From Syntrophaceae bacterium UBA2280 (GTDB taxonomy: Bacteria > Desulfobacterota > Syntrophia > Syntrophales > Smithellaceae), in contig DDWS01000001.1 of the NCBI GenBank assembly GCA_002347685.1, positions 18,641-82,640 on the forward strand: a stretch of 64,000 nucleotides of DNA. The letters run 5' to 3'. The translations under genes were made by a program, and so were the position numbers. How positions within the stretch are numbered: the stretch's first letter is position 1; the number at the start of each line of letters is the position of its first letter. Shown in pieces: positions 26,592 through 55,811 of this stretch. Below the pieces are notes generated by a model. The model worked only from the letters and a program-made list of their open reading frames with translations. It ran no database searches and was not told the DNA's origin.

Positions 26592-26611
26592 CTAGGTAAA
26601 CGTCAAAATGG
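26592..26611. repeat. Left flanking direct repeat of the island (attL core candidate)
   Basis: CTAGGTAAACGTCAAAATGG matches 17 of 20 positions of 55792-55811. On the minus strand it retains CCA TTT TGA, a copy of the last two ssb codons plus stop. Confidence 0.7.
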
Positions 26612-26911
26612 TTATGTATACCTGAAAATTGTAAACAGACCTTTATGGCTTTAATTTTATTAATAAAAGTAGAAAAAAATTATAAGCCATAATAATATTT
26701 GTTAATTAGTAGCTTCAAAATTCGATTTTTAAGCTATTTAGTTTACATTTCTGAATACGAAGTATTGCGAGTTTTTTCCCCTTACCCAACGATGTTGTTT
26801 GTGTAAGAAGCAAATGATTTGTCCGGTTCTGTAGCACATAAACTGTCCGGTTGTTAAGTTGCCTCTATGGAGGTGACGGATGAGACGGACGGAGATACTA
26901 AGATTCGGAAG

Positions 26912-27040
26912 ATGCGATTTGAGGAGATGTATTCAGGATGGCGTGAAGGTCGGCTGAGCGGCGCTAGTTTGGGGGGTTGCCCCCGGACGTTTCGTCGTCA
27001 GAAGAATCGGGCTGGATGGGCTAAACGATAAGCGACTGAC
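26912..27040 (+). pseudogene. Remnant of an IS transposase N-terminus (HTH region), frameshifted
   Basis: MRFEEMYSGWREGRLSGASLGGCPRTFRRQ..., then in another frame GLDGLNDKRL. This resembles the N-terminal HTH of rve-type IS transposases. No catalytic domain follows. Confidence 0.45.
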
Positions 27041-27310
27041 AACAATCAGAAAACGGGCAAAGTTCGTGACCGTGGCATAGATCCGGTGGACTGTGCCAAT
27101 CGCATATTCCTTTTCCAGGGCCGTTATGAAGGAATTCGAGAATGCCCTGTCCCAGGAGGACACGGAAGGGATATTAGCATGCCGGCTGAAGGCGAGGAGC
27201 TTGTGGACATCATAGGTCTTCGCCCTGGCGGTGTGAGGAGACTCGATGCCGATGACCTCTTTGTAGAGATAGAAAGACATCCAGTCCTGCAGATCGCCGG
27301 GGTCCGGCAT
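27041..27310 (-). pseudogene. Fragment resembling the N-terminal core-binding (SAM-like) domain of a tyrosine recombinase
   Basis: Track ORF 26933..27310 contains SPHTARAKTYDVHKLLAFSRH...IGTVHRIYATVTNFARFL with no catalytic domain. Its last part is merely antisense to the transposase remnant. Confidence 0.4.
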
Positions 27311-27411
27311 GGACAGGGGAGAAGTAGGACCGGTTGGAGCAGCACTAAAGAACAGGGGCTTGTCTTTGCCGTGGAGCTTTTTAAACAGGAATCTGGCTGT
27401 CTGTTTTTATT

Positions 27412-27870
27412 TCAAGGTATCACAAGCCGTTCGTCATAGGAAAAATCTTCGGTACTGACTATGGTAATGTTTTTCATGTTGGCATGGACCGTATTAATCA
27501 CGAAGTTGAATTCGTGTGGTACGAGAGTAGATGGAACCTGAATAACCATATTGCCAGACTTAAAGAGATCAGCGCCGATAGATTGCACCTCCGGCGGAAA
27601 CGGATATTCGTCCCAGTATTCGGGCAGAGCAGAAAGACTGACAACGAACGGCTTTATGGTTGCTGGTATATCAATAGTTATGAGTTTAAGCCTGCCAGGC
27701 GTGAATTCTCGGGAAATATGGACATAGAACTCCAGTGCTGCGAGTGCCCGATTTTGAGCAGCATAAAGCGACGGTACTCCAGCGGGAATCCATCGGCTAC
27801 CATAAAGTCGGTTTCCTTCTCCGGAAAGGTCATTTGCAAATTGGACTCGTGTGATTCGATAGACGAGCAT
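27412..27870 (-). CDS. RES-domain toxin
   Basis: LVYRITR...GEGNRLYGSRW...ALAALEFYVH pattern, 152 aa. Starts 2 nt after the DUF2384 antitoxin gene. Confidence 0.8.
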   Translation of the reverse strand: MLVYRITRVQFANDLSGEGNRLYGSRWIPAGVPSLYAAQNRALAALEFYVHISREFTPGRLKLITIDIPATIKPFVVSLSALPEYWDEYPFPPEVQSIGADLFKSGNMVIQVPSTLVPHEFNFVINTVHANMKNITIVSTEDFSYDERLVIP

Positions 27871-27872
27871 AT

Positions 27873-28301
27873 TTATGAAACAAGCCCATGTTCAATGCGA
27901 CCGAGTTCATTCATAACAAGATCTATTCCGAGATTGAAGGGAATAATATCAACAGGAGCACGCCAGCCCAAGGCAACAGAAGGTGATTGGAGCCAACCAA
28001 TAGCCTTAACGTCGTCATCAAAAACCTCCAGAGCACGTTCTTTGAGCGTGGCAATGCGCATGATGCGTTCCGAAATGGTCGGGCTTAGTTTTTTACGGGT
28101 GTCGGCCTTGTACCGCTCAAGCGTTTTAGGACTGACACCGAGAATGCGCGCCATTTGAGCGGGCTTAATATCAAGACTTTTTTCAAGCGTAGCAATAGAC
28201 CTTGCCCCTATACCCCCTTGGAGGATATCAAGAAGATCATAAGGGGAATGTGTCGGCTTGTCCCCTAGATCTAGCATTTTCATTACGTTTGCGATACCCA
28301 T
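27873..28301 (-). CDS. Xre/MbcA/ParS-type antitoxin (HTH plus DUF2384)
   Basis: ARILGVSPKTLERY HTH and C-terminal AIGWLQSPSVALGWRAPVDII...NELGRIEHGLVS. Confidence 0.85.
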   Translation of the reverse strand: MGIANVMKMLDLGDKPTHSPYDLLDILQGGIGARSIATLEKSLDIKPAQMARILGVSPKTLERYKADTRKKLSPTISERIMRIATLKERALEVFDDDVKAIGWLQSPSVALGWRAPVDIIPFNLGIDLVMNELGRIEHGLVS

Positions 28302-28322
28302 GATGCGTTTTCCTTTCTCTTA

Positions 28323-28367
28323 ATAGTCATTTGACTACATGATATAGACAAATGACTATTTTGTCAA
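28323..28367 (-). promoter_or_regulatory. Promoter with palindromic operator of the Xre-RES operon
   Basis: Minus strand TTGACA (28367-28362), 17 nt, TATCAT (28344-28339). Perfect 11-bp inverted repeat ATAGTCATTTG / CAAATGACTAT (28323-28333, 28349-28359) overlaps it. Confidence 0.65.
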
Positions 28368-28631
28368 GGGACTTTACCACAACGATGTCGTTTGTTGAAG
28401 TAAAGCCGTTCACATGCTACTTTATTTCGATGGACACTTCGAATAGATAGATTTTTTTAGTCGGTTAATTCATCCTCAGCACGGGTCAATAAAGTATCTG
28501 TGTATTTTTTTCCGTTACTGCAACATACATAGACGATTACCTGCCATTTATGTGGCTACAATTAATAACGACCCGTATTGGTACTATGTCAAGACCATAT
28601 AATGGACCATATCATGATCTGTCCCGACTTA

Positions 28632-28691
28632 TATTTAACCTGACAAACATTGTCCATTAATTCTCATCCTTAGCTATCTTCTTTCATCTAC
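28632..28691. repeat. 60-bp direct repeat, copy 1
   Basis: TATTTAACCTGACAAACATTGTCCATTAATTCTCATCCTTAGCTATCTTCTTTCATCTAC differs from 30316-30374 by 3 mismatches and 1 indel. Confidence 0.9.
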
Positions 28692-28739
28692 AAACAAGTG
28701 ATTGTGAATATTCCGGCTGTTGATGATTACTGTTTGAAG

Positions 28740-28813
28740 GCGCAACGTGGAGCTCACACTGGTGTCTATGGAGCGCAGTGGAATAGCCATCAAGTGCAGT
28801 GGGTTCGTTGGAC
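28740..28813 (-). other. Candidate attC-like recombination site downstream of the caspase-like gene
   Basis: Minus strand GTCCAAC (a perfect RYYYAAC) lies 11 nt after the stop, and GTTGCGC lies at the far end. The arms between them form an imperfect inverted repeat with bulges. Weaker than the 36-42 kb sites. Confidence 0.4.
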
Positions 28814-28824
28814 GACAGCCTCAC

Positions 28825-29799
28825 CTATATTCGATTCTTCGCTACCAATCTCCGGTAGTGCTCTCCCAGGGCTGTAAGTCTGCAAGACTTGCCCTCCATG
28901 GCAGCGTTCCACATGTGTGTGGCACCAACTGGAACGAGTAGGTTCAGGCGGTTGTAGCGTTGCAACACCCCAAAAATGCGCGTATTTTCAGGGATTGGTA
29001 TCGGCATTCCTGGGTCTCGACCTTTCATCTCAGGCTCATAAGTGGGATCAAGGCTATACTCAAAGCCAGGATCGGGAAAAAACTCGGCTAATCGGCGTAA
29101 ATCAGAAATATCTATCGGAGGGGATGACTTTCGCAACGAAACGAACTGTTTGACGTTAGTCTTAAATACTGGTCGCTGCTCCCATGCACCTAAGGATTGA
29201 TCAATGTGCGCGTATACGCTTCCTGGAGTAATGTCTCCGGTAAGGTTAGCCGCACTTCCACTCAGCGCATCCACAAAGAGAGAGGTAAATACCCCCCGCC
29301 CGTTTTCTTCCGTTGCATATTGATCTTTTGTAGATGCGGTTAGAACAGTGAGGCCCTCTGATAAAGTGGCCAACTGGTCGCTGGTTGATGGCGTACCTGC
29401 GATACCCGAGTGACAGCTGTCTAATACGATGACTTTGTTTTTTGCTGGCGAAGCGTTCGCGCAATTCAGAATCTCAGAAAGAGATACTCCTTCATCACCG
29501 CGTTTCGAGTCTGTCGCAAGTAGATAGCCTCCAGACGCTTCAATATGGCCATGACCTGCGAAGTAAAACAAGGCGATATTTGCGTCGGTTTTGAAAAGCT
29601 CCTCAATTCGATCTTTTAGCTCACTGCGATCTACTCGGTCACTCGGACCAGTGCCGGTGAGTAATCGACAATCGAAGTTTACCGCGCCACCATCGTGCCG
29701 TTCAAGAATTGCCTTAACAGCATGAGCATCATCAACACATCCGAATAGTGGGCTACCGTGTGCGTAATAGTTAATGCCAACAATAAGTGCTATTCGCAT
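28825..29799 (-). CDS. Caspase-like (peptidase C14) protease with an uncharacterised C-terminal domain of about 130 aa
   Basis: Catalytic dyad context FYFAGHGH and [10 protein letters not shown]. 324 aa. 18-nt gap after the TIR-like gene. Confidence 0.85.
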
Positions 29800-29817
29800 A
29801 ATAGTTACCTTCCTGTG

Positions 29818-30189
29818 CTAGAGACTATCAATAAATTTCTCGATTGCGGGCCATGTCCATACAACGGTATTTACACCGGATAGATTTGCTCGGTCATCTG
29901 TGTATGCCCATATGCCGAGAATCTTCTTTTTCTCTTCTCGCGCGCAGGCAATCTCCCATTTCTGACCACTTGAGGTAAAGGAGTTCTTACTTACAAGGGC
30001 GATGACACCATCCGAGCGAAGGATCCGCGTGCGAACTCGATCCTTCCAGTTAGAATCGTATGGCTCCTTCACTGACATATCGACGTACTCAAACGGTGAG
30101 TTCGTGTTTAGAGATTGGCCCTTGAGGAAGTCTCTTTGTCTCTCATCTTCGATAGCGAACGCCACAAAAATCACTTTCTTGTCTGCCAT
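29818..30189 (-). CDS. TIR-like domain protein (DUF1863/ThsB-like)
   Basis: KKVIFVAFAIEDERQRDFL...SDGVIALVSKNSFTSSGQKWEIACA...KILGIW. ATG at 30189 is preceded by GGAGAGG (track start 30210 is a GTG inside that SD). Confidence 0.75.
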   Translation of the reverse strand: MADKKVIFVAFAIEDERQRDFLKGQSLNTNSPFEYVDMSVKEPYDSNWKDRVRTRILRSDGVIALVSKNSFTSSGQKWEIACAREEKKKILGIWAYTDDRANLSGVNTVVWTWPAIEKFIDSL

Positions 30190-30315
30190 TTTCCTCTCCT
30201 TTTTATACACAGTTATTTTTTACAGCACTTCCGAGCAAGTTCGCGCCAATTTCGAGAAGCCGAACACCTTGTCATTCGTGAAGTCGAGTGGTGTCATATC
30301 GGCAATTGCCACTTC

Positions 30316-30374
30316 TATTTAACCTGACAGACATTGTCCATTATTCTCATCCTTAGCTATCTTCTTTCACCTAC
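30316..30374. repeat. 60-bp direct repeat, copy 2
   Basis: See 28632-28691. Lies about 125 nt upstream of the TIR-like gene start. Confidence 0.9.
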
Positions 30375-30548
30375 CTATACGCAGCATAATCCGATTTTTA
30401 TATTGATATTGTTATGTTACGTTGTTTTTTAATCATAATTCTAAATCTGTCAAGTTAATTTTATTCCCAGCCACGACTTGTACGGAGTCGGCTGCAGCAA
30501 TTTGTTTCGGCCTGTTCCGCGATCATCCATGGCCCTTCCTATACGCCA

Positions 30549-31637
30549 CTATTCCGGTTGCTGCTGTGGTTGACTTTCTGACCGTTCCATCAGCTTCCTT
30601 TCTGCCTCCGTTTGTTCTTCGTGCCACTTTGACCACTGTGCGTCTTCGTCTTTCAGTAGGTCTGCACTAACTGTTCTCGGTCTCAGACTTGCCATGTTCG
30701 CATCGGGTTTTGCCGCAAAGATAAATCTATGGGCGTGCTCGGCGATGCAGCGTCGTATTATTTCTGCCTGCTCTGAGCTAAACTGTGTTCCACGTTGCGG
30801 CGGTCGTGATCCAACTTGCGTATAAAGGAGGTGGGTTGGACTGATCGGCATGAATATTTCTGTTCCTTTACTTCCCCAACCACCACCGAAATCGTATTTG
30901 CTATGATTGTGAAAATTCAGGCGGACTACGGGATCATCGCTCGTAAACCATTCAGTTCCTTTCGGCGGAGCCATGATTGTCCACCGATGCTGCTGCAGAA
31001 CTTCGGCGGTTTTGGTAAGGAGATGCTTAATGCTAAAAAGCCACAAAGCGCGTCCGACAATGCTCTCCGCTTTTATCGTTCCGAACTCCTGGCCTCGTTG
31101 AATCTCGGTAGTAACACGTATTGGGAAATAGTTTGCCTGAGGAAATGGCGCAATGCGAATTTCTTCTCCACAAGCCTTCATGGACTCCAATTTCTCGACA
31201 GACTTCTCCAAAGTCATTTGAAAGAAGCCCGGGAAAGACTCATACCAACGCCGGAGAAACTCCACCAGTCTTGCTGGAGTTCTCACGTCCTGAGCGGATA
31301 GAAAACGTATCAAGACCCGCCAGTCGGATGGCTGGAGGCGACTGTCTGAAATAACCTTTTGCAGAACCTCTGCGGCAGGCGTCTCGTATTCACGGTCGAA
31401 CCATTTCTCTATCTCGTCAGTTGCGCCTCCCACTGCCAATCTCGTGTATAGATGTGCGTGATAGGCAACTCCTCGAATTGATTTCTCGTTCCATAGAGGT
31501 ACCTTCCCGTGCGAAACAAGCACACGATATAAACACACACGCCCGGGAGAGGATTCCCAAGCTTTAAGGTATTCACAGGGAACGTAGTGGTTGTCATGAT
31601 GAAAATCTGCTTGGGTCAAGAACGCCTCCGAGATCAA
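30549..31637 (-). CDS. DUF4238-like protein (362 aa)
   Basis: N-terminal HHDNHYVPCEYLKAW resembles the HYVPxFYL signature. Later LSAQDVRTP and WFTSDDPV...EIFMPISPTHLL also fit. Confidence 0.6.
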   Translation of the reverse strand: MISEAFLTQADFHHDNHYVPCEYLKAWESSPGRVCLYRVLVSHGKVPLWNEKSIRGVAYHAHLYTRLAVGGATDEIEKWFDREYETPAAEVLQKVISDSRLQPSDWRVLIRFLSAQDVRTPARLVEFLRRWYESFPGFFQMTLEKSVEKLESMKACGEEIRIAPFPQANYFPIRVTTEIQRGQEFGTIKAESIVGRALWLFSIKHLLTKTAEVLQQHRWTIMAPPKGTEWFTSDDPVVRLNFHNHSKYDFGGGWGSKGTEIFMPISPTHLLYTQVGSRPPQRGTQFSSEQAEIIRRCIAEHAHRFIFAAKPDANMASLRPRTVSADLLKDEDAQWSKWHEEQTEAERKLMERSESQPQQQPE

Positions 31638-31662
31638 GTAATGCCTTGACGATTATGTATGG

Positions 31663-31726
31663 GCCGAACAGTAAAGCTCAACCGGTGCGCGCCACGTGCA
31701 CGCAATCGGCTATAGCGAGGTTAGCA
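31663..31726 (-). other. Candidate attC-like site downstream of the 406-aa gene
   Basis: Plus strand GCCGAAC...GTTAGCA flanks imperfect inverted arms GCTCAACCGGTGCGC / GCACGCAATCGGCTATAGC with bulged bases. 64 bp. Confidence 0.5.
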
Positions 31727-31811
31727 GTTTTTTGCCGTTACTTAATATCGATCCCATATGCTTCAACAAAATCGACTATCATTTGTTTTTATTCTCTTTT
31801 GAATTCATTGT

Positions 31812-33032
31812 TCAATAATCTGTATCTAAGCATTTATTTAAAATGTGCCTCATGCACTCGGCACTTACATGCTTACAATTTATTGTTAATTGATCTGAAA
31901 CTTTATCAAATCTTTTAGTCCCATATATTATTCCAAGAGGTCGCCAATAATATTCAAGTTTATTTTGATGCACACACGTTCTGTCCGAACAATCGTCGTG
32001 TTTGGATGACTTTTTGATTAGTTTATTATCAATAGATTCAATCTTCATAGATGATTTATTAAATTTAATTAGGGCATTATGAGTTAATTTATTATCAAAT
32101 GGTAATTTATCGCATAAGAATTCTGCGAAGTCATTTTCAATTATTTTCTGGGATGTGATATATTCATCGAGCATTTTATGATCTTTAAGCTTCCGAACTA
32201 TCTCTTTGTGCTTTTGAATAATGTTAATAAATTCTTCATCGTAAATGTTATCCGGTAGTGAAATATGCCAGTTCAACCCCCCTTTACAGTAATAACGAAA
32301 ATCATCTAAATATTCAGCCGCCTTGATTGGGTCTGTTTCTAATGCAATACTTTTTAGAATAAAACAAACATTCTCAATTTCTGTCAATGCTTTAGCTGCA
32401 TTTTTTTTAGTTACATAAAACCCTTCTGGTACTTCACCCCAGTAATTATCTATCGGTATATTAAATTCTGGAAGCATATCATCATGTGAGACTTCAGAGG
32501 AGAATAAGTTCCAGTTGAGAAATTCTCTGTTTTTTGCAAAATCAGCTTTTATAAGCTGTGTCTCAATTTTATCCAGGGTCTCTCGCCGGGATGTAACCTT
32601 AAATTTATCAGTCTTTATCATTTTCCCTGGCATATAGAACTTTTCGTTTCCGTTATGAATAACTTTTTCACAATTGTCATCTATTTCAGTAGATGTTAAA
32701 AAATACATTAAGGGATTTTCTTCACTTCCTGTATGAACAATTAAAAAAAATTCATCTCTAGGTAGTCCTTGTTTATCAATGACATATTCGCAGTGTATAT
32801 AATGTGAGGTGCTACTTGTTTCAATAAATTTAGCCTGAACAACTCCTAATTTAGGTGCATTCCTGTCCAATATGTTCCTGTTTGTCAGCCTCCTTTGGAT
32901 AATAAAGTCAGCCCCATGAATATCGATAGACCTTTCTAATATCCAGAAACGATCCATTAAAAACGATCTGGTTCTGGCTTCTCCTATCGCTCCATTTTGA
33001 GCAATCTTGATCCAAGCTAGTTTTTTTTCCAT
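31812..33032 (-). CDS. Hypothetical protein with an N-terminal PD-(D/E)xK-like (DUF4365-like) nuclease domain
   Basis: GAIGEARTRSFLMDRFWILERSIDIHGADFIIQ...LGVVQAKF. Very AT-rich 406-aa ORF. Confidence 0.5.
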   Translation of the reverse strand: MEKKLAWIKIAQNGAIGEARTRSFLMDRFWILERSIDIHGADFIIQRRLTNRNILDRNAPKLGVVQAKFIETSSTSHYIHCEYVIDKQGLPRDEFFLIVHTGSEENPLMYFLTSTEIDDNCEKVIHNGNEKFYMPGKMIKTDKFKVTSRRETLDKIETQLIKADFAKNREFLNWNLFSSEVSHDDMLPEFNIPIDNYWGEVPEGFYVTKKNAAKALTEIENVCFILKSIALETDPIKAAEYLDDFRYYCKGGLNWHISLPDNIYDEEFINIIQKHKEIVRKLKDHKMLDEYITSQKIIENDFAEFLCDKLPFDNKLTHNALIKFNKSSMKIESIDNKLIKKSSKHDDCSDRTCVHQNKLEYYWRPLGIIYGTKRFDKVSDQLTINCKHVSAECMRHILNKCLDTDY

Positions 33033-33110
33033 AATACAATTCAGAAATATAAATTTGATTTATCCATTAAACATTGAGCAATATCGTGGTGTTTACGTAA
33101 ATCAAAGCGG

Positions 33111-33353
33111 TTAGCTATTATCTTCGCGCCAATCATAGTTGGCTTTGATTTTCAATATCCCCTTCAATCCTGCCTGCAACGGCTCGGGGTCAAGGGCGTC
33201 AAGTGTGTCATAATATAACTGGTCCTTCCATCGTATCGTCTCGAGCTCATCCCGCAAAAGCGCCTCTCGCCCGGCCTCGTGCTTTGCCTTGAGGCCGGCC
33301 ACCAACTCTCTGGCTCTCTTTTTGTCCTGCTCTGAGATTTTCTCAATCAACAA
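33111..33353 (-). CDS. Hypothetical 80-aa protein occupying the toxin position after a DUF2384 gene
   Basis: Starts 17 nt after the DUF2384-like gene. No RES motif. Charged and helical. Confidence 0.5.
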   Translation of the reverse strand: MLIEKISEQDKKRARELVAGLKAKHEAGREALLRDELETIRWKDQLYYDTLDALDPEPLQAGLKGILKIKANYDWREDNS

Positions 33354-33370
33354 TTATCCACTCACTCTAA

Positions 33371-33766
33371 CTAACGTATCACACCGTGCTCGATCTGGCC
33401 CAACTCATTGAGTACGGCTTCTACTCCACCCGGCTTTAACAGCCACTCCCGGCGGGTGCAATATAGGTCGGGGATCCAAGTGTTAAGATAGGAATCCACT
33501 GCACGCTCAGCCTCAAATACATCCATGGCCCTCTTTTGAATAACAACATGTCTTGCTAGCTGTCGCTTCAGTAATTTTAGCCGGTCCGCAGCACGACTGC
33601 CCCGGGCAGGTCCGAGGGCCTGCTCAATCCGTTCAAGCTTGATAGTCGCAGAGCGGATTGTTTCCGCCATAGTCAGACGATGGTCAGCAGCTTTTTGAAA
33701 AAAGAGATACGTCCGGTGCAAATCTATGTCCGCCTTCTCCAATATTTTTTTACGTTTAGGATCCAT
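33371..33766 (-). CDS. DUF2384-like (MbcA/ParS antitoxin C-terminal domain) protein
   Basis: The C-terminus AVDSYLNTWIPDLYCTRREWLLKPGGVEAVLNELGQIEHGVIR parallels the C-terminus of the 27873-28301 antitoxin. Confidence 0.65.
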   Translation of the reverse strand: MDPKRKKILEKADIDLHRTYLFFQKAADHRLTMAETIRSATIKLERIEQALGPARGSRAADRLKLLKRQLARHVVIQKRAMDVFEAERAVDSYLNTWIPDLYCTRREWLLKPGGVEAVLNELGQIEHGVIR

Positions 33767-33863
33767 GTTGAATACAATAGCCTAAATAGCAAAAAAAGGA
33801 AACTCCCAGATTCACGGACGCTAAGTTCAGTAAGCTAATCAGGCTAATCAAACTAATGGGCGG

Positions 33864-34223
33864 TCACACTTCCACCACGTTGATTAGCAAAATCATTTTT
33901 TTGATCACGTCTTCCAATGTTTCTTTTGGTGCCGCTGAAATATATTTTGCCTGCCTTTTCTCCCACTCCATACTTTTGATCTGATCGGAAAGAATGACAC
34001 CGTCTATTTTATTTTTTACGGTGATTCTGACTTCAAACGGATAACCGTTCATTTTTGATGTTATGGGGCAACAAAGAGCCAGGCCAGCTTTCGCATTATA
34101 CTCTTTTGGTGAAACAACAATTGCGGGGCGATGTCCAGATGGCTCATGCCCGCTTTGAGGGTTAAAAGATAGCCAGATAACATCACCTCGCGCGGGGATA
34201 TATTTACCAGATTTCTTTTCCAA
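33864..34223 (-). CDS. mazF: MazF/PemK-family endoribonuclease toxin
   Basis: GDVIWLSFNPQSGHEPSGHRPAIVVSPKEYN...CPITSK. TTG start overlaps the mazE remnant. Confidence 0.85.
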   Translation of the reverse strand: MEKKSGKYIPARGDVIWLSFNPQSGHEPSGHRPAIVVSPKEYNAKAGLALCCPITSKMNGYPFEVRITVKNKIDGVILSDQIKSMEWEKRQAKYISAAPKETLEDVIKKMILLINVVEV

Positions 34224-34392
34224 CAGGCCCTTCGCTCAATTCTTCTTTATGAATATTTTCATCGTTGATTTGTTCCAACAAATCACTTAATTTTAAGCTG
34301 ATTTTCTTCGGCACGATGACAATTTTATCTTTCTCATTAATCAAATCAACAACCGAACCCTGCTGAAGACCTCACGCGATTTTGCTAATCAT
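34204..34392 (-). pseudogene. mazE-like antitoxin remnant (N-terminally truncated, in-frame TGA)
   Basis: The frame reads MISKIA*GLQQGSVVDLINEKDKIVIVPKK...EGPVGKEIW*. This is the C-terminal two-thirds of an AbrB/MazE-type antitoxin. Its ATG overlaps the Fic stop, codon 7 is TGA, and the N-terminal beta-hairpin is absent. Confidence 0.6.
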
Positions 34393-35594: not shown

Positions 35595-35662
35595 CTAGTC
35601 CGCCATATTAATATCATTTTTTGCCGATTTACATTTATTACAATTCATTAATAATTTGAGTA

Positions 35663-35950: not shown

Positions 35951-36285
35951 GACCGTTTGCTCCCGGTACTTGGCCAGGGCATCCCGGCACGCAAAATACG
36001 CCTCCTGACGGCCCCCTGATGCTCTATTATTTCTTGGTTCAATTTAATTTAATATTTCATTCATCAAAATCCGTTAATGCCGCAATTAAAAGTAAAAAAA
36101 TAATATCTTAAAGATTGATGTTTTTAAGCGCATCTTATTGACGATTCTTCGGTTGATGTTTTGTGAAATAAGGATAGAGGGAAGAGTGGCGAATGTCAAA
36201 ATAACAAGGCGGCTCGTCCGTTTGCATCTACAAGTCAGCACCCATGGTGGATGAAATATTTTACTGATTTGCAATTGTAATAACG

Positions 36286-40141: not shown

Positions 40142-40145
40142 ATTT

Positions 40146-47437: not shown

Positions 47438-47452
47438 TCCTTGTTCCCCTGC

Positions 47453-49579
47453 TTATTCTCCATTGGTGAAACTGAAATTGGTAAGGTATGATTCATACAA
47501 ACGTATCGGCTCCACCCCACTGGGCAGGCGGCGGGCAATGGCCTGAAAGCGGCGGTCGTCATCGGTCACGATGTAGGCCACCTGTAAGTCCCTGGCCTGA
47601 TTAATGGCCTTTATAAATGGCGTGACAGCATCGACCTCCACCAACAAACCGTAAGCCTCTACCACAGCCCAGCCAGCGGCGGGCAGCTTGTCAATACACT
47701 GACCACGACTCCCTGCCCGCAGCCAAAGCATCGAAGCAATGCGTTCGAAGGCGCGGTTATGGTTGACGGAAACCGGCGTTTCGTAGGTCAGGGTGAAAAA
47801 CTCAGCGTTTTCTTCGAAACCCTCAGCCATCGGGAATTCATCGGTGAACTTGTAATCGCCCTTGATTGGCATGCCATCCGGCGTTTTGCCCGTAATTGCG
47901 GCAGCAACGCGTGGCTTCGTGATGTAGTCGCAGATGCCCCACTTCTCCCAGTCCTCATCGCCGGGGCGCAGACCCTGCTTGCGCAGTTCCTTTTGTTCAT
48001 CAGCAGCCACTTCGTTGTTGGTTACAGAGATGCACTGGCGGCGGCCACCGTCTTGATGATTGAGGCGCATCAGGGCATGGGCGGTAGTCCCAGAGCCGGA
48101 GAAAAAATCAAGGATGACGGCATTTGGCTTGTTTGCAACAAAGAAGCGCAGCGCGTCTTCAACGGCATAGAGTGATTTAGGGAATGGGAAGTTGCGACTT
48201 AGCAAAAATTTTGCTAAAAGCCGACTGCCATATTGGGTCGAATCATGAGCAGAGACTTTCCATTGCGTTCCTGGTATGGCCGTAACAACACTAGGATCGT
48301 TCTCTTCAACTAACAGAGAGCCATTAGGCGCGCAACCCATCTCTTTGAATTCCCCAGACTGAATTTTCTCATACTCTCCCGGTTTGAGAATATAGACCGT
48401 GAACCCTTTTTTTAGGCTTCCTCCAATACTGACCCGGCCCTCCTGCATCCTTTCTTTGAACGTCTCCGGAGACCACTGCCAGTTACCTTCTGACTTATCT
48501 TGCCGAATAGGTAAAATTGCAGTCAGACCAGGAATTTCTGGCGCTGAGCTGACACCTGGCTCAAGTGTGTCACCGACTTTCGCAACTATGTTGTTCTTAG
48601 GGTCAACATAGATTGGGTAGAAGCAGCCAGGCGAGTGACTCCTCTCAGCGTTAGTTCCCGAGCGTCTCAGCAAATCCCAACGAATCTTGCCGGTGTGTGT
48701 ACGCCCCTTCCCCGAAACCCATTCCCGATCAAGCCGCAATTTCGTGGGCGCAGCCTCGCCAATCATAACGAAGAACAAATACTCATCGCTTCTTCCGAAA
48801 CCACCGACTCTCGCTACCGCCGCTGGGTTGATCAAGGCACTTACCATCTGAATTCTGGCTTCAGGGAACGTCTGTTCCAGCAATAATCCAAGCCGCAGAT
48901 ATTCCTTCTCGTCGATAGTCACAATCAGTACCGAATTCGACGGATTCAGCAGTTCTCGCGCAACTAGCAATCGCCGCTCCATCATCGCGAGCCACTTGCT
49001 GTGCCGATAGAGGTCATCACCCTCGACGTAATCATTGTTGTATTTCCAATCCTTCGCCCCCGAGTTGTAAGGCGGGTCGATGTATATGGCATCCACCTTA
49101 CCACGATGTGTAAAGGTCAGAGCCTTCAATACGTGGTAGTTCTCGCCGTTTATGACAGTATGGAAGGGTTTGTCACCACCACGCCTCACGTTGCCTGTGC
49201 TGACCAAGCCAGGGTAGATGGTGTCGCGAAACTCGGACACCACAACTAGGTCATCGAGCGCCACGGTTTGAGTTTCCGGCTCTGCGGCATCCAATAGTTC
49301 AAGTTCAGCAAACCTGGTCGCCCCTTCTTTGCGAATGGCCTTCACCAGCCAAAGGCGCGGATCTCCTTTTTTGGTCGAGCCTCGTGCTGGCAATACCCGA
49401 ACTTTAGCGCCTTTGCGAATAGACCGCAGCGGCAGCTCCACCGCTTCCGGGCGATGACGTTCAAAATTCAGGCCGAAAGGCAGACGTGCCGACAGCACCT
49501 TAAATTCCCTATCGAGGTCTGCCCCTAGTTGTGAATCTTTGGCTTTCGCTTTGGCAATCAAGTCAGTTAATCGTGACAC
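47453..49579 (-). CDS. mod: Type III R-M DNA methyltransferase, Mod subunit
   Basis: IYIDPPYNSG (motif IV) precedes DFFSGSGTTAHA (motif I), the beta-class order. 708 aa. Confidence 0.88.
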   Translation of the reverse strand: MSRLTDLIAKAKAKDSQLGADLDREFKVLSARLPFGLNFERHRPEAVELPLRSIRKGAKVRVLPARGSTKKGDPRLWLVKAIRKEGATRFAELELLDAAEPETQTVALDDLVVVSEFRDTIYPGLVSTGNVRRGGDKPFHTVINGENYHVLKALTFTHRGKVDAIYIDPPYNSGAKDWKYNNDYVEGDDLYRHSKWLAMMERRLLVARELLNPSNSVLIVTIDEKEYLRLGLLLEQTFPEARIQMVSALINPAAVARVGGFGRSDEYLFFVMIGEAAPTKLRLDREWVSGKGRTHTGKIRWDLLRRSGTNAERSHSPGCFYPIYVDPKNNIVAKVGDTLEPGVSSAPEIPGLTAILPIRQDKSEGNWQWSPETFKERMQEGRVSIGGSLKKGFTVYILKPGEYEKIQSGEFKEMGCAPNGSLLVEENDPSVVTAIPGTQWKVSAHDSTQYGSRLLAKFLLSRNFPFPKSLYAVEDALRFFVANKPNAVILDFFSGSGTTAHALMRLNHQDGGRRQCISVTNNEVAADEQKELRKQGLRPGDEDWEKWGICDYITKPRVAAAITGKTPDGMPIKGDYKFTDEFPMAEGFEENAEFFTLTYETPVSVNHNRAFERIASMLWLRAGSRGQCIDKLPAAGWAVVEAYGLLVEVDAVTPFIKAINQARDLQVAYIVTDDDRRFQAIARRLPSGVEPIRLYESYLTNFSFTNGE

Positions 49580-50147: not shown

Positions 50148-50594
50148 CTAATTCGAATCAAGCTTTTTGCGCAAAATGGTCTGCCCGCGGTTAACATCAG
50201 GTAGAGGCTGACTCAGTAATTCGTAGTCGAAGCCATGAGCAGACGCATTGAAAGCCCATATGGTGAATTGTTCTAATAGGCGTTGATTTTCCGACTCTAA
50301 TCGTCTGTTTTCCGCCTCGAACCGTTCGATACGCTGTCGCGCGATCTGTACCTCTGGTGACGAGGTAGGTCCGATCTGGCCGCCATCCCTCAATAGATTT
50401 TTCTTTGTAAGGAAATACGCATTGCGGATTCTTTCGTGCTTGAAGAGTGCTTGCCGTGTATAGCGGCCATAAATGCGAACCGCAATCTCATCAATCAGCA
50501 GATTCCACGTAAGCTTGGTAGACCAACCATCGAGGATTTCAACTATCCGCTTGATATCAACGTCTGATAAATTTTTAGCTCGCCTGTGCATCAT
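50148..50594 (-). CDS. Small helical protein, fourth gene of the recombinase operon (GinD/TnpC-like by position)
   Basis: Coiled-coil RQRIERFEAENRRLESENQRLLEQ. The ATG at 50594 overlaps the end of the upstream recombinase gene. Confidence 0.6.
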   Translation of the reverse strand: MMHRRAKNLSDVDIKRIVEILDGWSTKLTWNLLIDEIAVRIYGRYTRQALFKHERIRNAYFLTKKNLLRDGGQIGPTSSPEVQIARQRIERFEAENRRLESENQRLLEQFTIWAFNASAHGFDYELLSQPLPDVNRGQTILRKKLDSN

Positions 50595-52608
50595 CAGCCT
50601 CCATTGTTTCAATAGCATCTTGAGTTTTATATAATTTTAATGACTCGTTCAAAAGCTTTGCACTCTTTGGTGGAGTCAATTGTATGACAGAACCAACAGG
50701 GACTTTAGGATCATCCATAATCGAGACCACTTGCTGCAACCGCTCCAATGTTGAGCGGTGATGCTCAAACCATCTGTCGCTACCGGCATATCCTTCGCCT
50801 ACTTTTTTTTCGGCACGTTCCGTAAGCTCTCTGGCTTCTGCTAGCCCTTTTCTCAATCGTTCAGCTTTCTCTTCGTCACCCTTTAAAAATACCAACTCGC
50901 CGCAATGTATGCAATCCCTGAAAATCTGGCAAGGTGACATTGTGTAATCATGCAGACAATAGCCAAGGTCTGTCGTATGCGCTGTAGGCGCTACAAGACG
51001 AGAGAATTCATCACGCGGGATTAAAATTCCTTTCGAAATTTCTGCCAGAGAGCCGAGAGGGCCGAAAAACTGGCTGTCGTCTCCTATGGCATCCCGTATT
51101 TTCATGAGCATCTGTTCAGCAGTTTCATGATCATAAGCTGCATTCTGGCGAACGTCCTGGCGGCCCGACCACTTTGCGATGTCAAGCTGACTCAAACCAC
51201 CCATTTGCGCCAGAGTATTGAGATAGTGCCGAAACTGATGTGTGGTAATTCTTATAGGAGTACCATCCGGTTCACAAAAACCTGCGCGCGAATAAATTGA
51301 TGATTTTCCTTGGGCAGATTGGCTACCGAGACCATTATTAATTTGATTGATGCTTATTGGTTCAATCATACAATTGTATGTCGCTTTGCTTTCGTCAATT
51401 TCATTTTTTCGGCAAATAAGCAAAGCCTCGCTATATTTGAGTCCCGTTTCAGCCTCCAAGATAGGAAACCTCCTTGGTAGCATGCTAAGTACGGCATTTT
51501 GGACATCTGCGAATTTCACCTGTTTTGATATATTCCTTTTGATTTTATGATCTGAACACCAATGGCTAGCGGAACTAATCCTTTTCATACCAATTACAGC
51601 TGCAACTTCAGTCAGGGATAGCCATTCCTGACCACGAAGATATTCCCTATCCTCTGAGAGATATATGCGTCCCGGATTAATCTCATACCAAATGGCTATA
51701 CGCCGGGCCTCTGCTGTTATTTTTTTTATCCTGCTAATCGCTTCCTTTACGACGCTGGCCCAGGAAGGCAGGATCCATTTGACCGTGGGATTTGCAGCCT
51801 TTGCTGGCCACCACCGGAGGCCATAAGCATCAGCTTCGCCGTTTTCCCGTTTCAAGTCGACCTCACAATTCTCCGGCAACGTGAGGACTTCGCTTATACG
51901 GTCGGGGCATGAGATTAGAATTACCGCCACAGACGCGACTATCACATCCACTGGCTCCACAGCCAAAAGAAAAACCTTGGGCAGCGATTCCAGCGCGGCC
52001 TCTGACGGCAACTTAGATTGCCTTCGCTTGTCAAATTCTTTGCCAACCCGATCAGTGTCACAAGGCCGTTTCAAAAAATTTCGCCACGGAAAAGGCCGGA
52101 TAGTAAGCCTGTTCGCGATTAGGAATTGGGAAAGAAATTGAAGATGACCGCCAACACGATATGCAACGACACCACTATATTTTTCGCGGACCATTTGTGA
52201 AGCCTTGTTTAGCACAAAGGAATCAATTTCGACAGGATCGGGAAAAACCGAATTTGAAGATAGCGCGTCACATACCGCTCTAAGGGCGACTAAACGTTTC
52301 TTGTAGTCGACAATTGGGTGAATTCCGTGCAGGTATCGCATATAAGACTTTGCAAAAATCAAGAACTTTTCAGGCATTGCTGTAGGGAATCTGTCGTTTA
52401 CAGTTTTTAACGTGCTGAATACTATCCCATGCCGGACGTTTCCATGTCCTTTTATACCGATATAATCGGTTATATCCCAAGTGTTGGAATCAAATGGGAG
52501 GTCGGATCCAAAGACGGTCAATTCGTTCCGACATAGGGCAATAAACCCTTGCATATTGCACTCGGCATCAAGCTCAGCACGTGGCTTAAAATAAATAATG
52601 TCAGCCAT
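50575..52608 (-). CDS. Tyrosine recombinase, large (677 aa; GinC/TnpB-like position)
   Basis: C-terminal catalytic region HQFRHYLNT...RQDVRQNAAYDH. Overlaps both neighbouring genes. Confidence 0.8.
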   Translation of the reverse strand: MADIIYFKPRAELDAECNMQGFIALCRNELTVFGSDLPFDSNTWDITDYIGIKGHGNVRHGIVFSTLKTVNDRFPTAMPEKFLIFAKSYMRYLHGIHPIVDYKKRLVALRAVCDALSSNSVFPDPVEIDSFVLNKASQMVREKYSGVVAYRVGGHLQFLSQFLIANRLTIRPFPWRNFLKRPCDTDRVGKEFDKRRQSKLPSEAALESLPKVFLLAVEPVDVIVASVAVILISCPDRISEVLTLPENCEVDLKRENGEADAYGLRWWPAKAANPTVKWILPSWASVVKEAISRIKKITAEARRIAIWYEINPGRIYLSEDREYLRGQEWLSLTEVAAVIGMKRISSASHWCSDHKIKRNISKQVKFADVQNAVLSMLPRRFPILEAETGLKYSEALLICRKNEIDESKATYNCMIEPISINQINNGLGSQSAQGKSSIYSRAGFCEPDGTPIRITTHQFRHYLNTLAQMGGLSQLDIAKWSGRQDVRQNAAYDHETAEQMLMKIRDAIGDDSQFFGPLGSLAEISKGILIPRDEFSRLVAPTAHTTDLGYCLHDYTMSPCQIFRDCIHCGELVFLKGDEEKAERLRKGLAEARELTERAEKKVGEGYAGSDRWFEHHRSTLERLQQVVSIMDDPKVPVGSVIQLTPPKSAKLLNESLKLYKTQDAIETMEADDAQAS

Positions 52609-54154
52609 TAAAACCCCTGATATCGCGAATGAGTTGGCACTGTCTTACAACCTCCGCAACTGCCAAAATCGTTCGGTCGCAAATCGAAGCAACGCGCAAG
52701 TCAGAGGACACCAGCAGCCGTTCGCGTTCGTTAATCAGATAATCCAACACCGCGCCGTGAGGACCGTCAAGCCATGGCCGAAAACCTCTGCACTGGTAGC
52801 AGGCAATAGGTGCCGACAAACCGCAGAAACCATTATTATCACAATTGCCCATCGGCTTCATCAAAGGGTCAAAGCGCGGATCACACACTCTACAAGCGGG
52901 ATCTCCTGCATAAGCGGCTTCGGTTTCATCTTTAATAATGACACCGGCAAATGCTGCTGCAAGTGGCGCCAACTGAAGTGCCACAGCGCGATCGATTCTC
53001 TCTATAATCTCCGGCATGGCTTGAACATAGACGCTGACATTTTGAGTATCTGTGTGATCCAAAAGTTCGGCAATTATTAACTCACCGTGGCCTTCAACAG
53101 CGGCCCTGGTGCCAACGCTTCGTCGAAAGCGATACGCGTTCACATTAAGAGGCTTTCCGGTGCGCTCCGACCTTACTTCCAGTCTTCCCACAATTTCTGA
53201 TAAAGCACGTGAAAGAGATCGACTTGTTTGATGATACTCAAAACCATTAGGCACTTTTTCGCGTATTCCTTTTGTTGGGAACAAGGGAGCTTGGCCTGGA
53301 TCTTCCAGTCTCAGCATAAAGCTCTCTTGCACTTCCGATGCATGCCGCAGGAGATTTTCACCGAGCTTCGCAATCAAAAGACGATTTTTAAACTCTGACC
53401 TTGGAAGACTGTGCCGCAGCTTGGCACGGGGAACACGAATTGAATAGACCGTCATCCCGTTCTTTGTTTCTCCCGACTTCACGTCGCAAACTTTGAGAAG
53501 AGCATACTGTACCGGACGCAGTCCTAGTGCGAGAAAAAGCGAAACCAAAACATATTCGCCAAGATTAATGACCTCGTCCTTGAAAGCTGTTTCCAATGAA
53601 AATAGAATCGCCTGATTCTCAAGATCAGTGTAGGGACCATTCACCGGATCCATTGTCAAAACCGCCTCGCCCTTTTTATTACCTGTAAGTCGGAGTTGCT
53701 TGAGAATGGCTATTGCACCGTCTTCTATTCCCAAATACCTCATTTCATGCCATTTTTTCATTAAACCAGATATACTGCCTAGATAGTAATGATCCCTTTT
53801 TTTTAATGTTGCATAGTAATTAATTATTTGATGCGGAGAAATCGATGAAACAATCATTCCTGATTCTGAGACGGTGAAGCTTAAAAATTTTTTTAAATAA
53901 AAATACAGATTATCCAAGTAACCCAACGATTTATTCTGCGCGTACCAAACGAAAACTTTCTTGGCTGCCAATTTCATTTCCGGAGTTATTGGCAATTTTC
54001 CGAAATCAAGCTTTACAGTATTCGAACTTTCATGACAATTCCAGATATCCAATCTCGGATCAAATTCCGCGCCACCTCGGGTACTGACTATTGACGGCAA
54101 GGTTAAATCACAGATTTTTGATGATTCGCGGCGCAAAGCCAAACTATTTATCAT
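52601..54154 (-). CDS. Tyrosine recombinase (517 aa; second of the trio)
   Basis: GLRPVQYALLKVCDV, AYRFRRSVGTRAA and LLDHTDTQNVSVYVQ. Confidence 0.75.
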   Translation of the reverse strand: MINSLALRRESSKICDLTLPSIVSTRGGAEFDPRLDIWNCHESSNTVKLDFGKLPITPEMKLAAKKVFVWYAQNKSLGYLDNLYFYLKKFLSFTVSESGMIVSSISPHQIINYYATLKKRDHYYLGSISGLMKKWHEMRYLGIEDGAIAILKQLRLTGNKKGEAVLTMDPVNGPYTDLENQAILFSLETAFKDEVINLGEYVLVSLFLALGLRPVQYALLKVCDVKSGETKNGMTVYSIRVPRAKLRHSLPRSEFKNRLLIAKLGENLLRHASEVQESFMLRLEDPGQAPLFPTKGIREKVPNGFEYHQTSRSLSRALSEIVGRLEVRSERTGKPLNVNAYRFRRSVGTRAAVEGHGELIIAELLDHTDTQNVSVYVQAMPEIIERIDRAVALQLAPLAAAFAGVIIKDETEAAYAGDPACRVCDPRFDPLMKPMGNCDNNGFCGLSAPIACYQCRGFRPWLDGPHGAVLDYLINERERLLVSSDLRVASICDRTILAVAEVVRQCQLIRDIRGFNG

Positions 54155-55415
54155 GTTCCACTCCCATCATCTTTGTCTGCATTTCGAGGGACACGGCGTT
54201 TGCTTTTTCACGGATGTGGCGCTTAGTGTACGTAGCTGCTGTCTGCGATGTCGAACACCAGCCCATGATATATGCACGAGTCTTCTTTTCCGTCTCTTCC
54301 GATTCCTTATGTTTGTCCATTTCTTCCGAAAATCGATCATTCCATGTGTGCCGAAGGATGTGGGGGTATACCTTAGGTAATTCCGGACATTTCATGCTGA
54401 GAATTCTAAAAATCTTGTTCAATGATGAAATAGACAGAGGAGCACCAGAATCTGTGGAAACAAAAAGGAAATCATGCTTTTTTGCGCCGAGAAATGCTGC
54501 CCGATGACGCAGGATGTAAGTTTCAATCATATCCCTCAACCCAGAGGAAAACGAGATTTTACGTGCTTTGGTTTTGGTATTCGGTTGATTATGGCGTGGA
54601 TCCTTGGGATCATCGGCACGCCTTACGATAATAACTGTATTTCCCCGAAAGTCGATATTAGGAATCCTGATACCCAGCAATTCCCCCCTGCGCAAACCAA
54701 GGTAATATAGCATATTTACGATCAGAACGTTTCGATGCTTCGAATGTTCCTCCTTCCACGGATTATTCTTCGAACTCGAATCAACTACCTGTAGTAATAT
54801 TCCCCGGCTTTCCGAATCCAACCCTTCTCGATCGCCAAGGGATCCCCGAGAGCATTCAGGGATTCTAACGTTAATAGCCTCTATCATCATCTGGCGCGCC
54901 GCATAGAGAGAATCGTAATGGCTGCTTTGTTTATTTTGTCGCGATAATTGCACCAGTGAAAACCAGGAAAGAAAGTCGCGGATAGCACGAAGTCGGTTAG
55001 CCGCCGTCGCCGGCAAAACATCCTGCATCCTCTTTGGACGCGGTCTCGCTCTATACTTCTCACAAGCCATAACTTTCAACGGCAACACCTTGGCACCATT
55101 AACGTGCCGACATGGCATCTCAGCCATTGGCAGTCGGCAAAAACATATCAATGACTCTATCTCAACCAACGTCAGCAGCTCTCCATGTCGCCCTCTTTCG
55201 CGAATATTTATGTCACGCAAGTCAAGCCACAGGTAAAGAATCATTATACCCCGCAAAGAACTTTCAATCGTGTTCGTTGCAAGATTGCTCATTCGTAATT
55301 GTGTGAGGGAATAGACAGTAGGTTCAAATAATGGTATCCTCTTTGAATCCAAAAGCATCGGCAGGCGCTCCCCTGACCGCAACACAACCATTTTGATACG
55401 ATATTGATGTTCCAT
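54144..55415 (-). CDS. Tyrosine recombinase (423 aa; first of the trio)
   Basis: GLRRGELLGIRIPNIDF (Arg), HILRHTW (H-x-x-R), AATYTKRH (Tyr). Confidence 0.85.
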   Translation of the reverse strand: MEHQYRIKMVVLRSGERLPMLLDSKRIPLFEPTVYSLTQLRMSNLATNTIESSLRGIMILYLWLDLRDINIRERGRHGELLTLVEIESLICFCRLPMAEMPCRHVNGAKVLPLKVMACEKYRARPRPKRMQDVLPATAANRLRAIRDFLSWFSLVQLSRQNKQSSHYDSLYAARQMMIEAINVRIPECSRGSLGDREGLDSESRGILLQVVDSSSKNNPWKEEHSKHRNVLIVNMLYYLGLRRGELLGIRIPNIDFRGNTVIIVRRADDPKDPRHNQPNTKTKARKISFSSGLRDMIETYILRHRAAFLGAKKHDFLFVSTDSGAPLSISSLNKIFRILSMKCPELPKVYPHILRHTWNDRFSEEMDKHKESEETEKKTRAYIMGWCSTSQTAATYTKRHIREKANAVSLEMQTKMMGVEHDK

Positions 55416-55503
55416 GTCTTTATATACCTTTCACGTGCCATCTGTATGTACTGGCCAGTCTTGCGATAATGTTTTCCTCAAATGTTCATTTTCAAAAAAG
55501 TCT

Positions 55504-55546
55504 AAAAAAAAGGACGCAAGATAGCACTAAGTGCTATTTGGCGTCC
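55504..55546 (-). terminator. Strong hairpin plus U-run on the minus strand, upstream of the recombinase operon
   Basis: GGACGC-AAG-ATAGCAC-TAA-GTGCTAT-TTG-GCGTCC, followed on the minus strand by eight T. It may insulate the operon from ssb read-through. Confidence 0.6.
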
Positions 55547-55791
55547 TCCTTAAATAGTCCACAAATCTTATATAGCCGAGTTCTTCTCCTCTCAATTTAT
55601 GAGAGAACCCTCAACTTTTGGAACATATTAACACAGATATTAATTGTTAACAATAAAAATTTTAAATCAATAGTTTACAAATTATTTTTGGTATTCATTA
55701 GGCGGCTAACAACGACACATATTTCAAACATGTAAACAATAAAAAACCTTGAAAGATTAAAATTATTCAGGCTTTTGTTAACAAAATGCTC

Positions 55792-55811
55792 CTAGGTACA
55801 TTTCAAAATGG
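55792..55811. repeat. Right flanking direct repeat of the island, overlapping the ssb stop codon
   Basis: CTAGGTACATTTCAAAATGG matches 26592-26611 at 17 of 20 positions. It covers the last two ssb codons, the stop and 11 nt beyond. Confidence 0.7.

Follow-up and report, generated by a model that had tools for sequence, protein, structure and literature searches.

What occupies the space between ssb and tatA in Syntrophaceae bacterium UBA2280 (Smithellaceae), where closely matching contigs have a spacer of 80 nucleotides (nt), and why does it end in the last codons of ssb? We analysed a stretch of 64,000 nt (the window: GCA_002347685.1, DDWS01000001.1, positions 18,641–82,640, forward strand; coordinates below are window positions unless another locus is named) and conclude that the 29.2-kb island at the 3′ end of ssb is very probably a mobile island of the GInt class. 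The definition of a GInt combines a ginABCD operon with cargo and a short AT-rich 3′ end, all between imperfect repeats, and includes excision as a circle (PMC5385486). Their cargo spans 2.5–70 kb, their direct repeats are about 10–17 nt long, and excision as a circular intermediate needs all four gin genes (Bardaji et al. 2017, PMC5385486).

The boundaries of the island are set by the following features, in which 'empty-site contigs' are contigs from other samples that lack the island:

26337-26522, tatA, to the left of the island
26538-26581, terminator hairpin of tatA, ending 10 nt before the left repeat copy
26592-26611, left repeat copy, CTAGGTAAACGTCAAAATGG
26603-26611, minus strand, the 9-bp core repeated where the far end joins the flank; empty-site contigs cease aligning at 26611
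55792-55811, right repeat copy, CTAGGTACATTTCAAAATGG
55803-55811, minus strand, core of the crossover where the island meets ssb, CCATTTTGA (Pro-Phe-stop of ssb); the two junctions and the empty site have it unchanged
55803-56207, minus strand, ssb, the target gene, intact and ending in ..EDVPF-stop (TIGR00621, E = 2.7e-50)

A preliminary description of this DNA had proposed that two direct 20-mers delimit the island. Both are present where it placed them and match at 17 of 20 positions, and a search of the 64 kb that allowed up to 3 mismatches returned these two sites only (0 in 100 shuffles). As it had also proposed, the right copy reads ..GTT CCA TTT TGA on the minus strand, the Val-Pro-Phe-stop end of ssb, and the left copy keeps CCA TTT TGA and therefore still spells Pro-Phe-stop. 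The length of the repeat had to be corrected: the 20-mers belong to a composite longer repeat with 33/41 identity (26571-26611 versus 55771-55811). The expected shift in base composition between the repeats is equally clear: the GC content falls from 53.4% and 52.6% in the two flanks to 44.9% within the island, with blocks as low as 32.5%. Scans of the window for tRNA genes and Rfam families found none, so this is not a tRNA-targeting island. The idea of a tandem pair within the window was likewise rejected: a repeat and core scan shows no internal junction, and the island is therefore a single element.

The search for an empty allele that had been suggested earlier was successful. An exact look-up of the SSB protein led to contigs from other samples (L001–L005). 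Three of these, all metagenome contigs (L002, L003 and L004), carry tatA, a single repeat and ssb with nothing between; ssb and tatA are convergent, separated by the 80-nt spacer. On either side, about 4 kb of these contigs aligns to the window at 99.0% identity, and the match ends at 26611 on the left and at 55771 on the right; the other two (L001 and L005) contain the recombinase genes. Because the alignments of the empty contigs break exactly at the repeats, the island is 26612–55811, or 29,200 bp, with a leeway of the 9 bp that its two junctions have in common, TCAAAATGG. It is thus a segment present or absent between chromosomes that are otherwise 99% identical, and the occupied and empty alleles form a clean natural pair. 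The insertion leaves ssb unharmed: the 134-amino-acid (aa) SSB protein is intact and identical in occupied and empty contigs.

In a multiple alignment, the empty site follows the left junction up to ...GTCAAAATGG and then runs into ssb, giving an empty attB sequence of ...GTAAACGTCAAAATGGAACATCC.... The core CCATTTTGA is found once in the empty site and once at each end of the island; beyond it, the sequences diverge immediately on one side at each junction, and the three bases by which the right copy differs belong to the element. Because the empty site has the left-copy variant throughout, the crossover is confined to the last 9 bp: of the whole repeat, just TCAAAATGG (Pro-Phe-stop) can hold it, which is a new refinement.

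The setting of the site is conserved. LysS encoded in the window is 90% identical to a protein from a Smithellaceae metagenome-assembled genome (MAG) and 80–84% identical to other proteins of Smithellaceae, Smithella and 'Deltaproteobacteria'. The lysS–ssb–tatA synteny is kept in related genomes, two of which have empty sites (L086 and L089). One further related Smithellaceae genome, that of Deltaproteobacteria bacterium HGW-6 (PHAT01000005.1; L087, L088 and L098), has a different GInt at the same ssb site; its GinD is 70% identical to that of the window, and its cargo, in a stretch of sequence (L098) that stops short of the far end, includes a 1666-aa NACHT/AAA ATPase, HipA-like and Xre genes.

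The assignment to GInts is carried by the genes at the ssb-proximal end, where three tyrosine recombinases and a small gene had been noted. These form one operon of four genes (50148-55415) on a single strand, that of ssb, with overlaps of 8–17 nt:

54144-55415, minus strand, ginA, canonical tyrosine recombinase, 423 aa (PF00589, E = 2e-15)
52601-54154, minus strand, ginB, 517 aa, the second recombinase, in which a Cys/His cluster lies near the C terminus (full-length match to NCBIfam NF041502, 535 bits)
50575-52608, minus strand, ginC, large divergent recombinase-like protein, 677 aa, matched by GinC fragments of Pseudomonas stutzeri DSM4166
50148-50591, minus strand, ginD, predicted small helical protein, 147 aa, assigned by its position after ginC

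The three-part layout of a GInt, which the preliminary description had recognized, holds in full: the operon is followed by cargo (26933-50147) and by a gene-free tail of 321 nt with a GC content of 33%, all between imperfect direct repeats. The comparison with known Gin proteins that it had recommended gave a positional result. We used the fragments of P. stutzeri DSM4166 GinA, GinB and GinC that are printed in a supplementary figure of PMC5385486, with E-values calculated in a database of five sequences, and each fragment matched its positional counterpart only. The GinA fragment is 30% identical to the product of the first gene over 216 aa (E = 2e-20), the GinB fragment 35% identical to that of the second over 85 aa (E = 3e-7), and two GinC fragments are 27% identical over 104 aa (E = 4e-7) and 41% identical over 64 aa (E = 4e-13) to that of the third.

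GinA and GinB appear to have a complete set of catalytic residues, the RHR(H/W)Y set described for these two proteins (Bardaji et al. 2017; Idola et al. 2023). In GinA, R223, K262, H333, R336, W367 and Y377 are invariant in 12 homologues (numbered in a 404-aa form starting at 55358; the start at 55415 is backed by N-terminal similarity to other loci), and its matches in the PDB are XerA, Tn1549 Int and XerD. The invariant residues of GinB are R213, K245, R344, H367 and Y376. GinC, which has no match in Pfam and whose profile has none among PDB sequences, has 1086 homologues (1,893 representatives at the 50% clustering level). Its invariants are R237 (in PDRISE), H457xxR460, W480 and Y492, together with a C-terminal Cys/His cluster, and its invariant motifs are PDRISE, HQFRH, KWSGR and AYDH. 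GinC has been described as being without the first Arg (Bardaji et al. 2017, PMC5385486) or without the whole RHRY motif (Idola et al. 2023); the printed DSM4166 GinC fragment also contains HAFRH...SVYNH. The top 10 Foldseek matches of the GinC model (pLDDT 62) in the PDB are all tyrosine recombinases, at E-values of about 1e-2. We infer that GinC is a large divergent paralogue that keeps the Arg, His-Arg, Trp and Tyr positions, residues that may or may not form an active site. The Cys/His clusters of GinB and GinC are similar to each other.

GinD has no family match in Pfam or NCBIfam and no meaningful structural match in the PDB. Its 209 homologues (137–168 aa) always follow ginC, and a sub-threshold match to DUF6262 was found in 18 of 20. 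The model (pLDDT 73) has four short helices and a long helix at residues 79–118, suggesting a small helical accessory protein; position, size and the all-helical model are compatible with the published description of GinD, a small protein whose C terminus is predicted to be helical and of the HLH type.

That the site itself is typical of the class emerged from the literature. The preliminary description had suggested that ssb might be an undocumented target, which was wrong: 6 of the 11 GInts analysed in diverse phyla lie at the end of ssb, with the SSB protein unaltered (PMC5385486), so that ssb is documented and in fact preferred. The published ssb repeats are of the same kind (CCGTTCTAAT/CCGTTTTGAAT, CCGTTTTTAATT and GTGCCGTTCT; PMC5385486).

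Our own survey points the same way. Scanning one genome per species with a GinC alignment gave 80 loci (L006–L085), mostly from Beta-, Gamma- and Alphaproteobacteria; one comes from a Deltaproteobacteria MAG, and a few are MAG contigs that bear the names of other phyla. The order ginABCD is colinear in all 80 wherever the contigs allow, and an ssb ending in ..PF-stop directly precedes ginA in 50 of the 60 loci with upstream room. The remaining loci are either the second copy of a tandem or have, in place of ssb, another gene whose end resembles the core (for example, CCATGCTAA, AACTTTTAG and CCTTCTGA).

The founding GInt paper found no common end features (PMC5385486). With many ssb-targeting elements at hand, we aligned 51 ssb-proximal arms from other species in register from the stop codon. 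The corresponding features of the window are:

55416-55802, minus strand, ssb-proximal non-coding arm, 31.5% GC, with a layout shared in register with the 51 arms
55794-55797, ACCT box of the arm (read AGGT on the plus strand)
55775-55782, GTTAACAA box, next to which lies a weak hairpin with a T-run
55731-55739, TTGTTTACA box
55673-55679 and 55644-55653, further arm boxes
55503-55547, strong arm hairpin with T8 and a 1-nt loop
26612-26932, gene-free AT-rich far end, 321 nt, 33% GC
26612-26623, far-end inner box, TTATGTATACCT
26630-26637, far-end outer box, TGTAAACA
26643-26661 and 26674-26692, far-end inverted repeat

Each of the 51 arms has the same order: 5 nt, ACCT, about 11 nt, GTAAACAA, a hairpin with a T-run, and TTGTTTACA. 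The hairpin is stable in 50 of the 51 (−9 to −26 kcal/mol); no two stems have the same sequence, and all stand at the same distance from the ssb stop, within the first ~85 nt (for example, L007 6944-7030), bracketed by inverted GTAAACA/TGTTTAC boxes. The arm hairpin thus behaves as a predicted conserved intrinsic terminator that is supplied to ssb, and the shared arm, made up of boxes and this terminator, is a second refinement of the published picture. A simple terminator scan of the window arm returned none, the T8 hairpin at 55503-55547 having evaded its loop rule. One open reading frame (ORF) called inside the non-coding arm (55469-55735, plus strand) was dismissed as spurious.

At the far end, the inverted repeats at 26643-26692 and the TGTAAAC/GTTTACA motifs of the AT-rich, gene-free tail are present as first described. 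Ends of the form ..CATAA followed by the core, with a TGTTTAC-type box 20–27 nt inside, occur in the window and in two further loci (L016 and L017), and three others have the same ending with variant TATTGAC/TATTTAC boxes (L046, L054 and L050). Joining both ends gives a predicted attP sequence of ...CCTAGGTACATTTCAAAATGGTTATGTATACCTG..., which, from the arm and far-end boxes, would be roughly symmetric around the core. The signature of about 50 arms, boxes and terminator together, could be used for finding GInt ends automatically and for designing binding-site experiments.

Two reading frames lie beside the far end. The short frame at 26911-27030 (plus strand) reads MRFEEMYSGWREGRLSGASLGGCPRTFRR and has no NCBIfam match; we take it to resemble the helix-turn-helix (HTH) N terminus of some IS transposases. 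The overlapping 125-aa ORF at 26933-27310 (minus strand) has a faint match to a SAM-like integrase domain and none in NCBIfam. The region 26911-27310 may be decayed sequence.

The repeat is longer than the core, and its remainder has a likely explanation in the empty site, where an arm like that of the element lies outside the island:

26528-26602, minus strand, element-like arm with an ACCT box, a GTAAACAA box, the terminator hairpin at 26538-26581 and a T-run; also present in the empty site (L002 3939-4013)

We built a position weight matrix from 48 arms of other species and scored 69,074 background positions. The flank of the empty site scores 25.5 bits, compared with 19.6 for the window's own arm and a background maximum of 13.3; the flanks of the empty sites of related Smithellaceae score −26 and −15.5 bits, and four stretches of host sequence past the far ends of other elements −40 to −7 bits. 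The 80-nt ssb–tatA spacer thus resembles the opening 75 nt of a GInt with its terminator. In the 32 nt before the core, 24 positions match, a level reached by 6 of 200,000 random 32-mer pairs. As far as these sequence comparisons go, the repeat beyond the core is the likeness of the element's conserved arm to the 75-nt element-like arm of the empty site, which is also a new refinement.

The simplest reading is that the spacer arm is apparently the relic of an earlier GInt, now serving as the shared terminator of ssb and tatA. An intact equivalent of this situation is found in Paraburkholderia elongata, where two different GInts lie in tandem behind one ssb (L050 15220-15560). The two are 34–41% identical in protein sequence to each other's class and are separated by ..CCCATAA, CCTTTTTAA and an arm, in that order.

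The fuller proposal, that ssb GInts share a recognizable conserved att architecture (the core, inner AGGTA/TACCT boxes, outer TGTTTACA/TGTAAACA boxes ~20 nt away and an ssb-side terminator that replaces that of the host) and that a 75-nt relic arm has here been domesticated as the ssb/tatA terminator and offers newcomers a near-perfect half-site, is tentative, with slightly less than an even chance of being right. If true, genomes could hold a readable record of past GInt occupancy, and GInts would pass through tandem accretion and then decay as part of their life cycle. A relic arm where the site is 'empty' hints that one site has been occupied repeatedly.

How would such an element work? We propose that a circular form, in which the far end, the core and the proximal arm are joined, would recombine with the ssb core through the Gin recombinases. 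The element would supply its own last codons, stop and (in the family) intrinsic terminator, so that SSB and its essential C-terminal tip would remain unchanged. The boxes placed symmetrically round the core (AGGTA/TACCT at about 5 nt, TGTTTACA/TGTAAACA at about 20 nt) are the likely, predicted recombinase binding sites. The cargo of defence and addiction genes (Type III restriction–modification (R-M), Fic, MazF, RES–Xre, TIR with caspase, and DUF4238) would favour retention. The element contains no transfer genes and would probably spread by other vehicles, such as conjugative plasmids whose own ssb is targeted.

Several points weigh against the island being a working GInt. Excision and a circular form are predictions, and the empty alleles may represent the ancestral state and not the outcome of excision. 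The similarity to reference Gin proteins covers GinA, GinB and GinC and comes from printed fragments with E-values from a five-sequence database; the model of GinC is of low confidence, and its fold matches are weak. The hairpin of the window arm is degenerate (−6.9 kcal/mol versus −9 to −26 in relatives), the strong T8 hairpin lying 250 nt further on than this weak one. About 230 extra nt between the arm and ginA, relative to most relatives, could impair the element.

The last two points bear on the alternative that survives best, namely that the island arrived as a GInt and is now a fixed, immobile remnant, so that the polymorphism records one past integration beside strains that were never occupied. 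Low excision frequencies have been reported for GInts (Bardaji et al., PMC5385486), some of which leave no empty site (Idola et al.), and two scans of metagenome contigs, one for the predicted attP junction and one for the far end, returned nothing. The far end was missing too, so the scanned collection does not contain the element, and the attP negative is uninformative on excision. Against this reading, none of the four gin genes is truncated and their catalytic residues are conserved, both junctions are intact, and the island is 100% identical to the window in contigs of at least four samples (SRR1313259, SRR1313261, JGI 3300040971 and ERZ27315057) and is therefore young. On balance we consider an immobile remnant unlikely.

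Far less probable is that the empty alleles arose by homologous deletion of the RecA type between the 41-nt, 80%-identical repeats. These are direct and extend to 33 of 41 positions, as such a deletion would have it. However, the empty site has the left-copy variant at all eight mismatched positions, and any exchange was therefore confined to the last 9 bp, a length insufficient for homologous recombination; moreover, the Pro-Phe-stop core is also the boundary in dozens of unrelated hosts whose flanks have no such similarity. Least probable of all, by a little, is membership of another class with several recombinases (a RIT element, a Tn554-family transposon or a strand-biased circularizing element (SE)), all of which combine two or three tyrosine recombinases, with a small third or fourth protein in Tn554 and SEs, as against the direct repeats, the 29 kb, the order A-B-C-D (423/517/677/147 aa) and the specific GinA, GinB and GinC similarity found here, and a GinC search of plasmids without a staphylococcal match.

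A GInt at the end of ssb is thus the reading that we retain, and its cargo is in keeping with it. GInts, as the Tn6571 family, are carriers of defence systems (Hochhauser et al. 2023, PMC10121019). The cargo of the window comprises:

44843-49579, minus strand, Type III R-M system: mod 47453-49579, res 44843-47437 (PADLOC MTase_III, E = 2e-299, and REase_III; Pfam N6_N4_Mtase and ResIII)
44243-44566, plus strand, XRE-type HTH gene, divergent from the block of seven ORFs
38896-44566, AT-rich block, 38–43% GC, of seven minus-strand ORFs (396, 104, 68, 208, 260, 197 and 389 aa), its span taking in the HTH gene
27412-37649, minus strand, cargo block made up of the genes below
36666-37649, minus strand, HNH protein
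34389-35594, minus strand, Fic/SoFic protein
33864-34223, minus strand, MazF toxin
33371-33766, minus strand, Xre-like antitoxin, neighbour of MazF
31812-33032, minus strand, 406-aa protein without an assigned family
30549-31637, minus strand, DUF4238 protein
29818-30210, minus strand, TIR/ThsB-like protein
28825-29799, minus strand, caspase-like protein (peptidase C14)
27873-28301, minus strand, Xre antitoxin
27412-27870, minus strand, RES toxin

The seven ORFs of 38896-44566 have no match in Pfam, NCBIfam, PADLOC or PHROGs; lying among defence genes, they are a candidate uncharacterized system. The caspase-like gene and its short TIR/ThsB-like neighbour (28825-30210) form a pairing suggestive of a defence module, and neither is placed in a named system. 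An ORF at 27484-28158 (plus strand) overlaps the Pfam-supported RES and Xre genes and was discarded as spurious. In the annotation of the cargo we saw no phage structural, conjugation or replication genes.

Relatives of the element do occur on plasmids. GinC searched by tblastn against 72,556 plasmids matched 114 records, none of them staphylococcal or enterococcal, and in 4 of 4 plasmids examined that have upstream sequence, the plasmid's own ssb precedes ginA:

NZ_CP083369.1, NZ_CP122931.1, CP008790.1 and NZ_CP061074.2 (L090, L091, L095 and L096), plasmids with relatives of the element directly behind the plasmid ssb

Three of the four are typed as conjugative (MOBF; IncF/IncN and IncC types), and pPAD8 is typed as non-mobilizable. 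Plasmid relatives from Escherichia coli and Pseudomonas aeruginosa carry Avs4 or a type ISP R-M system. Relatives behind the ssb of conjugative plasmids suggest a spread route for an element without transfer genes, and this occupancy suggests why the universally conserved Pro-Phe-stop is a good target.

Tandem arrangements are also seen in the family. Tepidimonas fonticaldi has a perfect head-to-tail duplication of a 21.7-kb GInt behind ssb (L014/L016; NZ_VJOO01000006.1, 58982-102696). The two copies are 100% identical over 14,952 nt, and the junction between them, equivalent to an attP, has exactly the arrangement of the attP reconstructed from the window. The tandem may be real, or may be an assembly that ran through the circular form.

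Set beside known systems, the island is closest to the ssb-targeting GInts of Ralstonia solanacearum PSI07, Shewanella baltica BA175, Opitutus terrae PB90-1, P. syringae UMAF0158 and AZ84488, in which ginABCD likewise stands beside ssb. As in the ssb GInts of Bardaji et al., the insertion covers the last codons and the stop with SSB unchanged, and the imperfect repeats contain CCNTTYTRR; those elements are 10–76 kb long and often carry R-M or addiction modules, as does this one. The tested DSM4166 GInt has the same four-gene order and tripartite layout, with GinA, GinB and GinC fragments 27–41% identical to the proteins of the window, whereas the tested GInts carry toxin biosynthesis or metal transport genes as cargo.

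Resemblance to other classes is more limited. RIT elements consist of three recombinases of 315–410 aa bounded by 34-bp terminal inverted repeats and lack both cargo and a fourth gene (PMC10214605), in contrast to the direct-repeat ends, fourth gene, 23 kb of cargo and proteins of 423, 517 and 677 aa found here. Tn554 (TnpA, TnpB and TnpC) shares site-specific insertion by tyrosine recombinases and a small third protein that is regarded in the literature as the counterpart of GinD; contrasted by description, it has two recombinases, no target duplication and hosts in Staphylococcus and Enterococcus, whereas the island has three and a duplicated 9-bp core. The relationship to Tn554 raised in the preliminary description did not show in the GinC search of plasmids. 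In SEs the genes run intA-tfp-intB-srap, the footprint is 6 bp and the hosts are Gammaproteobacteria only; again by description, the island differs from them in its host and in having the large divergent paralogue third rather than second. The tandem pairs behind ssb in the family are like elements that accumulate at one attachment site; unlike these intact pairs, the window's second element is apparently reduced to ~75 nt just beyond the far end.

GInts, their preference for the 3′ end of ssb and their defence cargo are already known, and as an island this one adds little beyond published GInts; the comparisons of arms, plasmid relatives and the relic arm may prove of more use. Like the Tn6571-family elements of E. 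coli (Hochhauser et al. 2023), it has three integrases and a short gene followed by anti-phage systems; its repertoire differs, with Type III R-M, SoFic, TIR plus caspase, DUF4238, MazF, RES–Xre and an unannotated 5-kb block. The nearest relatives of its Gin proteins are 57–67% identical and mostly betaproteobacterial. Its host, by contrast with the ssb GInts of Bardaji et al., belongs to the Smithellaceae (Syntrophales), a group absent both from their list and from the RefSeq survey of Idola et al., and the known host range of GInts is thereby extended to the syntrophic Smithellaceae (Desulfobacterota).

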